From Nocardioidaceae bacterium (lineage in GTDB: Bacteria; Actinomycetota; Actinomycetes; Propionibacteriales; Nocardioidaceae): a stretch of DNA of 64,000 bases. A program made the position numbers and the translations under genes. The stretch is from assembly GCA_025934895.1 (NCBI GenBank), contig JAICWH010000002.1:2472-66471 (forward strand), in the 5' to 3' direction. Below, piece after piece: positions 35,514 through 38,714 of this stretch. Each line of letters begins with the position of its first letter. Within the stretch, counting starts at the first letter, position 1. The notes beneath the pieces are model-generated. The model ran no database searches, was not told the origin of the DNA, and saw nothing but the letters and a program-made list of their open reading frames with translations.

Positions 35514-35672
35514 TCAGTGCGCGGAGATGCAGCGGCCGCAGCGGGGGCAGTGCGCCCGTGCGACGACGTCGAGCTGCTGACCGCAGCGGCAGTCTCGGAG
35601 GCGGCGGCGCACGATGCCCTGCTTCTTCGTGACCCGACTGTCGCCGTTCGTGGTGTTCTCGGTGCGGCTCAT
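35514..35672 (-). CDS. 52-aa Cys/His-rich micro-protein (absent from ORF track), paralogue of 38556-38714
   Basis: Hand translation MSRTENTTNGDSRVTKKQGIVRRRLRDCRCGQQLDVVARAHCPRCGRCISAH*; GGGGAG upstream; GC-rich third positions. Confidence 0.75.
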   Translation of the reverse strand: MSRTENTTNGDSRVTKKQGIVRRRLRDCRCGQQLDVVARAHCPRCGRCISAH

Positions 35673-35796: not shown

Positions 35797-36018
35797 TCAG
35801 AGCTTGTGCAGCTTCGCGAACGGCCGCATCAACCGCGTGCGCGAAGTTCCGAAGTCCACCACGACCGCCTGCTCACCCTCGACAGCGACCACGCGGCCGA
35901 GACCGTACTTGTCGTGCGTCACCCGCTCGTCGACCAGGAAGGTCTCCACCACCTCCGGCACAGGAGGCTTGAAGGGACTGCTGGCTAGGTGTCGCCGGGA
36001 CCCGGCATATGGCTTCAT
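35797..36018 (-). CDS. Stand-alone PcrA/UvrD C-terminal Tudor-like domain protein (73 aa)
   Basis: FLVDERVTHDKYGLGRVVAVEGEQAVVVDFG..LHKL*; ATG at 36018 with CATACT 7 nt upstream. Confidence 0.75.
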   Translation of the reverse strand: MKPYAGSRRHLASSPFKPPVPEVVETFLVDERVTHDKYGLGRVVAVEGEQAVVVDFGTSRTRLMRPFAKLHKL

Positions 36019-36199
36019 TGGCTCCAGTATGTGCCAGGGGGGCTGTCCCTGTCGCCCTTCGGCGCCCACGATCGGGTCCGTACGGGGAGGAAGCCTGGCC
36101 GTGCGGCGTCTCCAGCCCCCCGGACCGGAGACGGCGCACTGCACACCTGAGACGCCGGAGCGGCCGGGTCGTGACGCCGGTTGAGACCGGCTCTTCGGC

Positions 36200-37054
36200 C
36201 TAGGGGTAGAGGTGCCGCACCAGCGGGCCCGGCGCGAACGGTCGCCAGCTCCTCTCCGGACGGGCCAACCGGTCGGCCAACAGGTGCAGGACGGTGGGGT
36301 TGTTCACGAGACCTGAGTGGCTGCCGCGAACCTCGATGTTCTGCCGACGCCGGCCGGGCGGCAGCAGACAGGACTTCCACGGCACCACGCCGTCGCTGCG
36401 CGTGTAGACGGCCGTGGCCGGCACCCGCAACGGCCCGGGCTCCGCCCACGGGCGCGCCACCATCGACGGCGTCACGTGCAGGTGCGACATCGCGTCGAAC
36501 ACCTGGGACGCGGCCCGACCGCTGCGGCGGGCCAGCCGCACCGGACTGCCGAGGGTGACGACCTGCCGGACACTGCCCGGAGACTTGCGGGCGAGCTCGT
36601 GCGCGTAGAGACCCCCCAGGCTCCAGCCCACGAGGCTGACCCGGCTGCCCGAGGAGTCAGCCAGCGTCTCCAGCCGGTCCCGCAGCCCGCTGACGACCGC
36701 CTCGGTCGGCCCGAGGTTCGCACCGAGCCGCCAGCCGGAGACCGAGTAGCCCAGCCAGCCGAGGTAACGGCGCAGGAGCAGGGTGGAGGCGTCTCCTCCC
36801 CACAAGCCGGGCAGCACCAGGACCGGGTGTCCGTCGCCTCGTTGTTCGACGGCGAGCAGGGGCGCGACCGTCACGGTTGCCGCCAGCTCCAGCGAGGCTC
36901 GCGGCAGCTCGGAGGCCAGCAGCCTGGCTGCGGGACCGTGCCGCCCGACCTGCACGGGCCGCGGCAGCGATCTCCATCGGGCTGGAGCCCACGTCCCGAC
37001 GGCCCATGGGGCCGGAGGCCACCCGCGGACCTGGGTCAGGGGCAGCCGGCGCAC
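36200..37054 (-). CDS. Alpha/beta hydrolase (esterase/lipase-like)
   Basis: VLVLPGL, LVGWSLGG (GxSxG), VTLGSP, SDGVV, SHSGL. Confidence 0.88.
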   Translation of the reverse strand: MRRLPLTQVRGWPPAPWAVGTWAPARWRSLPRPVQVGRHGPAARLLASELPRASLELAATVTVAPLLAVEQRGDGHPVLVLPGLWGGDASTLLLRRYLGWLGYSVSGWRLGANLGPTEAVVSGLRDRLETLADSSGSRVSLVGWSLGGLYAHELARKSPGSVRQVVTLGSPVRLARRSGRAASQVFDAMSHLHVTPSMVARPWAEPGPLRVPATAVYTRSDGVVPWKSCLLPPGRRRQNIEVRGSHSGLVNNPTVLHLLADRLARPERSWRPFAPGPLVRHLYP

Positions 37055-37075: not shown

Positions 37076-37420
37076 TCAGGGCTGGTGTGCCGCGCGGTAG
37101 GCCGCGATCACCGTCACCGGCAGGCGACCGCGCCCGCTGACCGTGAAACCGTTCTGGCGCGCCCACGCACGGAGCTCGACGTTGCTCACCTGGGGCGTGG
37201 CCTTGGCGCCGCCGCTCCCCTTCTGGCGCCGCCTGGCCGATCCCTTTCCCGGTGGCGACGTGGCGGGACCCGGTGGGGGTGCGATGCTGGGTACCTCGGA
37301 CAGGTCCGGCTGGGGGACGTGCTTCGTGGACACCCCGAGCTCGACGCCGTACACAGCGCCGACGACACGCAGTGCGTCCTCGAGCGGGTCGCTCGAGTCG
37401 ATGGTCACCTTCACGGGCAT
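37076..37420 (-). CDS. Lsr2-like nucleoid-associated protein with atypical N-terminus
   Basis: C-terminal ELRAWARQNGFTVSGRGRLPVTVIAAY (Lsr2 DNA-binding domain with RGR hook); GAGAGG RBS before ATG 37420. Confidence 0.8.
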   Translation of the reverse strand: MPVKVTIDSSDPLEDALRVVGAVYGVELGVSTKHVPQPDLSEVPSIAPPPGPATSPPGKGSARRRQKGSGGAKATPQVSNVELRAWARQNGFTVSGRGRLPVTVIAAYRAAHQP

Positions 37421-37545
37421 CTGCCTCTCGACGTGTCCGGCGGATGGGAGGGTCCACAGCTGGATGCCTCCCAACGCTACTAGAGACGGCAACCCGGCGC
37501 AGCGAACGCGCCGGTCCGGCGGATCCGCCCCGACGGCACGTGGGC

Positions 37546-38555: not shown

Positions 38556-38714
38556 ATGACCACCGAACAGCACGCCTGGGCCACGGCTCCGGCGACGGGG
38601 AGGACCTCGAGGCCGTCCGGGCCGCCGGTGTGTGGCTGCGGCCAGGACCTCGACGTATGTCACGGGAGCCACTGCCCACGCTGCGGCACGTCGCTGCTCG
38701 CGCACGCGGCGTGA
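38556..38714 (+). CDS. 52-aa Cys/His-rich micro-protein (absent from ORF track), paralogue of 35514-35672
   Basis: Hand translation MTTEQHAWATAPATGRTSRPSGPPVCGCGQDLDVCHGSHCPRCGTSLLAHAA*; GGAGGGAG RBS. Confidence 0.78.
   Translation: MTTEQHAWATAPATGRTSRPSGPPVCGCGQDLDVCHGSHCPRCGTSLLAHAA

Follow-up and report, generated by a model that had tools for sequence, protein, structure and literature searches.

A conserved 73-residue protein of Actinomycetes that resembles a free UvrD1/PcrA Tudor domain: a possible adaptor or competitor at helicase-docking sites

A single small Tudor domain directs PcrA/UvrD-type helicases to RNA polymerase, UvrB, and Ku, partners among which the cell has to partition the helicase. 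The PcrA Tudor domain binds RNA polymerase, and each of the substitutions H681A, W684A, K712A, and L714A nearly abolishes binding (PMC5397179). This domain engages a β-hairpin, the "helicase interaction motif" [VIL]DxxTGE[VIL][VILT], in RpoB and UvrB. The free PcrA C-terminal domain (CTD) out-competes full-length PcrA for the elongation complex, and its overexpression in Bacillus subtilis leads to more R-loops (PMC8318588). In mycobacteria, the UvrD1 Tudor domain is needed for formation of the Ku-UvrD1 complex and for activation (bioRxiv 10.1101/2023.09.29.560180). Here, we describe a gene for a stand-alone domain of this kind on a 64,000-nucleotide stretch of DNA (the window) from a Nocardioidaceae bacterium (assembly GCA_025934895.1, contig JAICWH010000002.1). 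Its 73-amino-acid (aa) product combines a predicted Tudor-like barrel with a short N-terminal tail that carries a nearly invariant motif.

The open reading frame (ORF) runs from an ATG at 36018-36016 to a TGA at 35799-35797 and encodes MKPYAGSRRHLASSPFKPPVPEVVETFLVDERVTHDKYGLGRVVAVEGEQAVVVDFGTSRTRLMRPFAKLHKL. Its GC content by codon position (GC1/2/3 = 0.69/0.43/0.82) is of the coding type in a genome of 71% GC, and the long opposite-strand ORFs over the same interval are of the mirror-image kind that a GC3-rich gene usually produces. A longer, 115-aa reading from an upstream in-frame GTG (36144) was ruled out: the 42 codons between this GTG and the ATG have a pattern that is not coding-like (0.76/0.67/0.76), the homologues begin at the same Met, which a stop codon directly precedes in one relative, and a conserved element lies 7 nt 5' of the ATG. 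Neither a helicase gene nor a helicase remnant was found among the neighbors in the window, which comprise an alpha/beta hydrolase, a Cys-rich ORF, and a CDP-alcohol phosphatidyltransferase. The genome (3.9 Mb, 247 contigs) retains a complete UvrD1/PcrA on another contig (C26), which carries its own, more divergent Tudor tail (GDRVLHDSFGMGSVV...).

In a phmmer search of the PDB, the protein matched the Tudor domain of Mycobacterium smegmatis UvrD1 (9DQS, E = 2.5e-7) and residues 721-770 of Mycobacterium tuberculosis UvrD1 (9DCI, E = 1e-5). A family profile recovered the same two proteins at E = 3.5e-9 and 1.5e-8, respectively. When the family alignment was compared by hhalign with the C-terminal tails of UvrD1/PcrA from related genomes, the probability was 98.1% (E = 8.9e-14, 46 columns). 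An AlphaFold2 (AF2) model built on a 31-sequence family alignment has a mean predicted local distance difference test score (pLDDT) of 76.8, with five predicted strands (residues 32-35, 39-47, 51-55, 60-64, and 70-72) in which pLDDT reaches 83-88. The top Foldseek matches of this model in the PDB were exclusively UvrD/PcrA Tudor structures, with template modeling (TM) scores, normalized to the target, of 0.73-0.82. The best were 9DQS, 7EGT_B (Thermus UvrD CTD bound to UvrB), 5DMA (PcrA Tudor), and 7EGS_B (Escherichia coli UvrD CTD in complex with the lobe of RNA polymerase); the RNA polymerase interaction domains (RID) of Mfd and CarD ranked lower. A preliminary description of this DNA had identified the 73-aa ORF as a PcrA/UvrD Tudor-like domain without a helicase gene or remnant upstream and had placed the stretch DRVTHDKYGLGRV in mycobacterial UvrD1. 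Each of these points was borne out, DRVTHDKYGLGRV being identical in the two proteins.

Database models for such domains respond faintly to the family. PcrA_UvrD_tudor (PF21196) is matched at E ≤ 0.01 by 20/31 family members, with a best E of 6.9e-4 that is sub-threshold, and CarD_TRCF_RID (PF02559) by 8/31; the 73-aa protein itself scores 16.1 bits against the latter (threshold, 23; E = 0.012). Precomputed Pfam annotations among 103 homologues place PF21196 on only two proteins and PF02559 on only one. A PHROG search gave no match to the protein at E ≤ 0.1, and the sole PADLOC match (DpdF, 11.5 bits) is meaningless. Despite the sub-threshold Pfam score, the similarity to the UvrD1/PcrA Tudor domain is, judged on the alignments, far beyond chance. 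The stand-alone family most likely descends from a helicase tail of the mycobacterial UvrD1 type. In a tree of the Tudor region, the stand-alone sequences form an unresolved star, within which the helicase tails group together (support, 82/85). This topology is compatible with one old origin but, because only 48 columns were available, is no proof of it, and the resolution of the tree is too low for the split to be dated or rooted. Separately, a RecQ-family helicase ORF in the same genome (C93:6112-7914, plus strand) ends in a Tudor-like tail (VGADVVHRTFGPGSVVDVEGDTITVLFDD...) with a sub-threshold PF21196 score of 21 bits; it would be a second helicase class bearing a Tudor docking domain.

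The residues on which PcrA relies for RNA polymerase binding have counterparts in the family. In the family-profile and hhalign alignments, PcrA H681, W684, K712, and L714 map to H35, Y38, R62, and I/V/L63, with the K712-to-R62 correspondence hanging on a one-residue gap placed by hhalign. Across 101 distinct members, H35 is conserved in 100%, Y38 in 92% (F in 4%, E in 4%), R62 in 98% (K in 2%), and I/V/L63 in 98%. Candidate docking sites are present in the same genome. UvrB contains LHPLTGEVV within its UvrB_inter domain, and RpoB (C142:37240-40770, plus strand) contains NNETGEIK at about residue 145, in an N-terminal hairpin, as a loose TGE-type candidate. We take the latter to align with the β1 hairpin region used by Mfd and CarD. 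The strict motif [VIL]DxxTGE[VIL][VILT] was not found in this RpoB; the genome has three strict matches, two of them in ORFs on contigs C82 and C188. The remaining one, LDPVTGEVT, lies in a 1,246-aa TrwC-relaxase/AAA_30 protein (C186:32334-36071, minus strand; locus L113), an ORF that was considered as RpoB and rejected. UvrD1-type Tudor domains may dock on this conjugative relaxase through LDPVTGEVT.

The N-terminal tail is as constrained as the barrel. Among the same 101 members, the motif RRxLxxSPF is nearly invariant (R8, 95%; R9, 98%; L11, 98%; S14, P15, and F16, 100%), which equals the conservation of the barrel core (V33, H35, G39, G41, and P66, all 100%). The AF2 model has no secondary structure in residues 1-30 (pLDDT, 53-72). 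RRxLxxSPF is absent from every other coding frame of the genome, and in the same genus, the linkers of the helicase have no more than a short RRFG; helicase linkers in general are poorly conserved (PMC5397179). Because a passive decoy would not need such constraint, the tail appears to be more than a passive linker.

Homologues are numerous and uniform in size. A word-indexed search returned 103 close homologues, almost all of 73-76 aa, and an exhaustive profile search returned 439 representatives at 50% identity with E ≤ 1e-3, at least 219 of them with E ≤ 1e-10. The best 150 of these 439 range from 50 to 171 aa, with overcalled starts the apparent cause of the greater lengths; length is otherwise steady at 72-76 aa across hundreds of clusters. 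The ratio of nonsynonymous to synonymous substitution rates (dN/dS, Nei-Gojobori) is 0.08-0.30 in eight close orthologue pairs. Only close pairs were used; the all-pairs median of 0.47 was set aside as inflated by saturated synonymous sites. By this measure, the ORF is a functional gene under purifying selection and not a decaying uvrD fragment, an alternative that the preliminary description had raised.

In an even sample of Actinomycetes, the gene (counted as a full-length match at E ≤ 1e-12) is present in 111/301 genomes and 58/141 genera. Named hosts include Nocardioidaceae, Actinomadura, Spirillospora, Nonomuraea, Streptosporangium, Streptomyces, Kitasatospora, Streptacidiphilus, Humibacillus, Trebonia, and Pseudonocardiales, with two or three copies in some genomes. 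Named database entries read "hypothetical protein," apart from a few automatic transfers of "ATP-binding protein" or "DNA helicase II." Within the genus of the window, 13/25 genomes have the gene and all 25 have the helicase; the gene is absent from five genomes that are at least 98% complete. In these genomes, homology to the window covers pgsA and the Cys-rich micro-ORF and breaks off shortly downstream of the end of the Tudor gene, and no remnant of the Tudor gene is left in them. One genus member carries the Tudor gene 300 kb from pgsA. A typical actinomycete copy beside a csp gene also occurs in a metagenome-assembled genome labeled "uncultured Alphaproteobacteria" (locus L058, CAWKNH010000009.1), a bin label that is probably wrong.

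The gene is preceded by a highly conserved sequence. The hexamer CATACT was present in 94/100 loci, and in 77 of these 94, across orders, the first ATG or GTG lies 7 nt beyond it. At the G/G/C/G and GG positions on either side of the hexamer, conservation across orders is 75-88%. The loci compared share no conserved -35 element, and a sigma-70 consensus scan gave no match. CATACT is probably the -10-type element of the gene's own promoter, with transcription starting at or next to the ATG and yielding a leaderless mRNA. A GGAG was rejected as a Shine-Dalgarno sequence on two grounds: only 3 nt separate it from the ATG, and relatives do not conserve it. Searching the genome for GGCGCATACTG as the signature of a regulon gave six unrelated sites and no regulon. 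A second such element, GGGCCATACTGG, is followed by GTG/ATG near position 14765 of contig C198 (minus strand), before a 68-aa hydrophobic ORF (VMRRFRSWLLLALPLVVVVV...); this may be a further small gene that has a comparable -10 region and is leaderless. At the 3' end of the Tudor gene, an intrinsic terminator consensus scan found no match; this region folds slightly better than shuffled sequences (z = -2.0).

Gene neighborhoods were counted in the 80 best loci from named genomes, with neighbor identities confirmed by Pfam. A gene for a cold-shock domain (CSD) protein lies within 4 kb in 34/80 loci, in 30 of them as the immediate neighbor, with divergent, tandem, and convergent arrangements all represented, and a DEAD-box helicase gene is present in 22/80. 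In six of these genomes, which span 5-12 Mb, CSD genes number only 4-8, so about 0.5% of random 8-kb intervals would be expected to contain one. This coupling points to a role in transcription and RNA handling under stress rather than in excision repair as such. No report linking Tudor domains, cold shock, DEAD-box proteins, and Streptomyces was found in the searchable literature. Clusters of csp, DEAD-box, and Tudor genes were seen at L040, L041, L052, L064, L077, L109, L112, and other loci, from Streptosporangiales, Kitasatospora, Trebonia, and others. Their orientation varies (<DEAD <CSD >TUDOR; >CSD >DEAD >TUDOR; >CSD >TUDOR). In Nocardioidaceae, the Tudor gene lies upstream of the pgsA cluster.

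From the observed gene, homology, fold, selection, distribution, motifs, and neighborhood, we infer binding partners and a physiological role. We tentatively favor a two-handed adaptor or competitor, in which the barrel sits on a partner of the helicase-CTD class and the tail makes a further contact. The C-terminal 47 residues would occupy the helicase-docking site on RNA polymerase or UvrB, the known partners of the parent domain being the TGE β-hairpins of RNA polymerase β and of UvrB and, in mycobacteria, Ku. The disordered, basic N-terminal 26 residues, with RRxLxxSPF, would contact either another partner or a second surface. Such a protein would be a motor-less adaptor or competitor that tunes the access of UvrD1/PcrA or another factor to stalled or transcribing polymerase, and its mRNA, probably leaderless, would be transcribed from a highly conserved promoter element of its own.

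Several observations weigh against this reading. We know of no report of RNA polymerase binding by the mycobacterial UvrD1 Tudor domain. This domain, the closest solved relative, is documented as a Ku-interaction module that excision repair can do without (PMC11975281; bioRxiv 10.1101/2023.09.29.560180) and is dispensable for repair of UV, mitomycin C, cisplatin, and psoralen damage (PMC11975281). Actinobacterial RpoB fits the published helicase interaction motif only loosely, and the sole strict match with a known identity is the TrwC relaxase. The match of the 73-aa protein to PF21196 is 19.9 bits, below the gathering threshold of 23.9, with only profile positions 1-23 aligned (E = 6.9e-4). 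The gene is dispensable, with about half of the same-genus genomes lacking it. Finally, CSD linkage is absent in the window and in Nocardioidaceae, and in a sample of one genome per family, it drops to 3/14. Part of the 34/80 count therefore reflects shared ancestry within Streptosporangiales.

The recurrence of CSD and DEAD-box genes next to the Tudor gene, in several orientations and several orders, raises the question of whether helicase partners are involved at all. Like small barrels of the KOW, S1, and Sm types, this one could instead bind RNA, the ribosome, a Csp, or the neighboring DEAD-box helicase and serve RNA remodeling at low temperature. The basic character of the protein (pI 9.9) would suit such a function, as would the weaker Foldseek matches, which include ribosomal proteins of the KOW type and the KOW domain of MutS2, and the match of one family member to an SPT5 KOWx model. 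Against this, the strongest sequence and structure matches are all to UvrD/PcrA Tudor domains, and the protein-docking residues are retained. The window's own family also lacks a nearby csp gene, and the csp genes of this genome are on contigs C119 and C23. We regard an RNA or cold-shock factor as an unlikely explanation.

The preliminary description had proposed that the free domain could be an RNA polymerase decoy, competing with UvrD1 or Mfd and tuning transcription-coupled repair or R-loop removal. In its pure form, the free docking domain would titrate the RNA polymerase/UvrB site and lower UvrD1/PcrA recruitment, with the tail being only an inherited linker. The homology and the conserved surface residues fit a decoy as well as they fit an adaptor, the free PcrA CTD is a dominant-negative competitor in B. 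subtilis (PMC8318588), the length of the protein equals linker plus Tudor domain in the E. coli UvrD CTD construct 6YI2, and in the profile alignment, weak similarity continues into the linkers of two helicases, M. tuberculosis UvrD1 and Geobacillus PcrA. To this extent, the proposal stands. There is more to the protein, however, than a free domain: its tail motif RRxLxxSPF equals the barrel core in invariance, unlike the poorly conserved helicase linkers. For this reason, the two-handed reading is favored over a passive decoy, which we consider unlikely. The location of the gene in many lineages, beside cold-shock and DEAD-box helicase genes and not beside repair genes, also counts against a pure decoy. 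The tail motif, the upstream CATACT element, and this adjacency had not featured in the preliminary description.

A more specific version of the adaptor would place the Tudor barrel on the RNA polymerase hairpin while the tail recruits a cold-shock protein or DEAD-box helicase to the emerging transcript, in competition with UvrD1/PcrA. We judge this combination distinctly improbable; if true, the protein would be a transcription-coupling adaptor of Actinomycetes that links RNA remodeling or R-loop avoidance to transcription at low temperature. Ku offers a different partner. The barrel could bind Ku and block or mimic the Ku-dependent activation of UvrD1 at double-strand breaks, given that the closest solved relative is the mycobacterial UvrD1 Tudor domain (46-47% identity, with DRVTHDKYGLGRV shared), that this domain is required for the Ku-UvrD1 complex and activation (bioRxiv 10.1101/2023.09.29.560180), and that Ku is encoded in the genome. 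Ku is, however, present in 15/15 same-genus genomes with or without the microprotein, giving no co-occurrence signal, and no gene for nonhomologous end joining is linked in any locus examined. Modulation of Ku is thus a doubtful explanation and one to which we give little credence. As far as sequence analysis reaches, the idea of a duplicated uvrD/pcrA gene in decay, or of an ORF that is spurious and owed to GC-rich DNA, which the small size and sub-threshold Pfam match might suggest, can practically be dismissed in view of the purifying selection, steady length, conserved start and promoter element, coding-type GC3 pattern, absence of a helicase remnant nearby, and clean absence, with no pseudogene, in relatives without the gene.

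The features of the locus are collected in Table 1. The Cys-rich micro-ORF between the Tudor gene and pgsA has a paralogue in the window (38556-38714, plus strand); both encode 52-aa Cys/His-rich products with C-x-C...HCPRCG and no Pfam match, and a similar ORF of 53-59 aa precedes pgsA in relatives (L033 and L007). Because DNA homology across this micro-ORF persists in same-genus genomes that lack the Tudor gene, it travels with pgsA and not with the Tudor gene. Elsewhere in the window, an ORF at 37076-37492 (minus strand) encodes an Lsr2-like protein with a C-terminal Lsr2 DNA-binding domain (E = 6e-12), whose true start is probably MPVKVTIDSS and not the listed TTG.

Table 1. Features of the stand-alone Tudor locus (positions are those of the window)
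Feature	Position	Strand	Evidence or remark
Complete coding sequence, 73-aa protein	35797..36018	minus	ORF translation, codon-position GC, short homologues, dN/dS
Five-stranded Tudor/SH3-like barrel, codons 27-73, homologous to the UvrD1/PcrA CTD	35800..35940	minus	AF2, Foldseek, sequence and profile homology
N-terminal motif R-R-H-L-A-S-S-P-F, codons 8-16 (consensus RRxLxxSPF)	35971..35997	minus	Within predicted disordered basic tail, residues 1-26
GGCA-CATACT, then GG (family consensus GGCG-CATACT-GG)	36026..36035	minus	Hexamer ends exactly 7 nt before ATG
Alpha/beta hydrolase	36200-37054	minus	Flanks Tudor gene
52-aa Cys-rich ORF	35514-35672	minus	Flanks Tudor gene
CDP-alcohol phosphatidyltransferase (pgsA), then DUF881-DUF1290-DUF881 cluster			Flanks Tudor gene beyond 52-aa ORF

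The Tudor domain itself is already known, as is the competitor action of a free CTD, which was shown artificially. We found nothing in the searchable literature on a stand-alone family that is natural and conserved and that combines such a tail motif with this promoter element and with linkage to csp and DEAD-box genes. If the protein is a two-handed adaptor or competitor, the union of a docking domain with an invariant peptide motif would constitute a built-in regulator or adaptor of the helicase hub and the physiological equivalent of the free CTD that, when expressed artificially in B. subtilis, raises R-loops. The csp/DEAD-box linkage suggests an undescribed connection between transcription-coupled helicase docking and RNA handling. 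The occurrence of the gene in Streptomyces and many other genera of Actinomycetes makes it experimentally accessible, and its two conserved surfaces (H35/Y38/R62 and S14/P15/F16) suit separation-of-function mutants. Even if no such partner is bound, this is a large, unnamed family overlooked by current Pfam thresholds.

Among described systems, the mycobacterial UvrD1 Tudor domain (9DQS; 9DCI residues 721-771) is closest. Both are actinobacterial five-stranded barrels, and the identity given above extends over about 50 residues. Unlike UvrD1, the 73-aa protein is not attached to a superfamily 1 (SF1) motor, lacks the G-x-G-E-S loop between strands 2 and 3, and ends in xPFxKLxKL rather than xxAPxxKL; its invariant N-terminal RRxLxxSPF also sets it apart from the helicase linkers, which lack this motif. 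With the PcrA/UvrD Tudor domains of Firmicutes, Proteobacteria, and Thermus (PF21196; 5DMA, 6YI2, 7EGS, and 7EGT), it shares the same fold, at the TM scores reported above, and conservative equivalents of the four PcrA residues that bind RNA polymerase. Whereas the PF21196 domains lie at the extreme C terminus of SF1A UvrD/PcrA, the 73-aa protein is encoded on its own, by a natural gene that has a separate, conserved promoter element. A further parallel is the CarD/Mfd RID (PF02559), a Tudor-like barrel to which weak hidden Markov model and Foldseek similarity was found. This domain docks on the β1 lobe of RNA polymerase, and CarD is a small, motor-less RNA polymerase-binding protein of Actinobacteria. 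Unlike CarD, the 73-aa protein lacks the C-terminal helical domain, and its homology to the helicase Tudor domains is much stronger.

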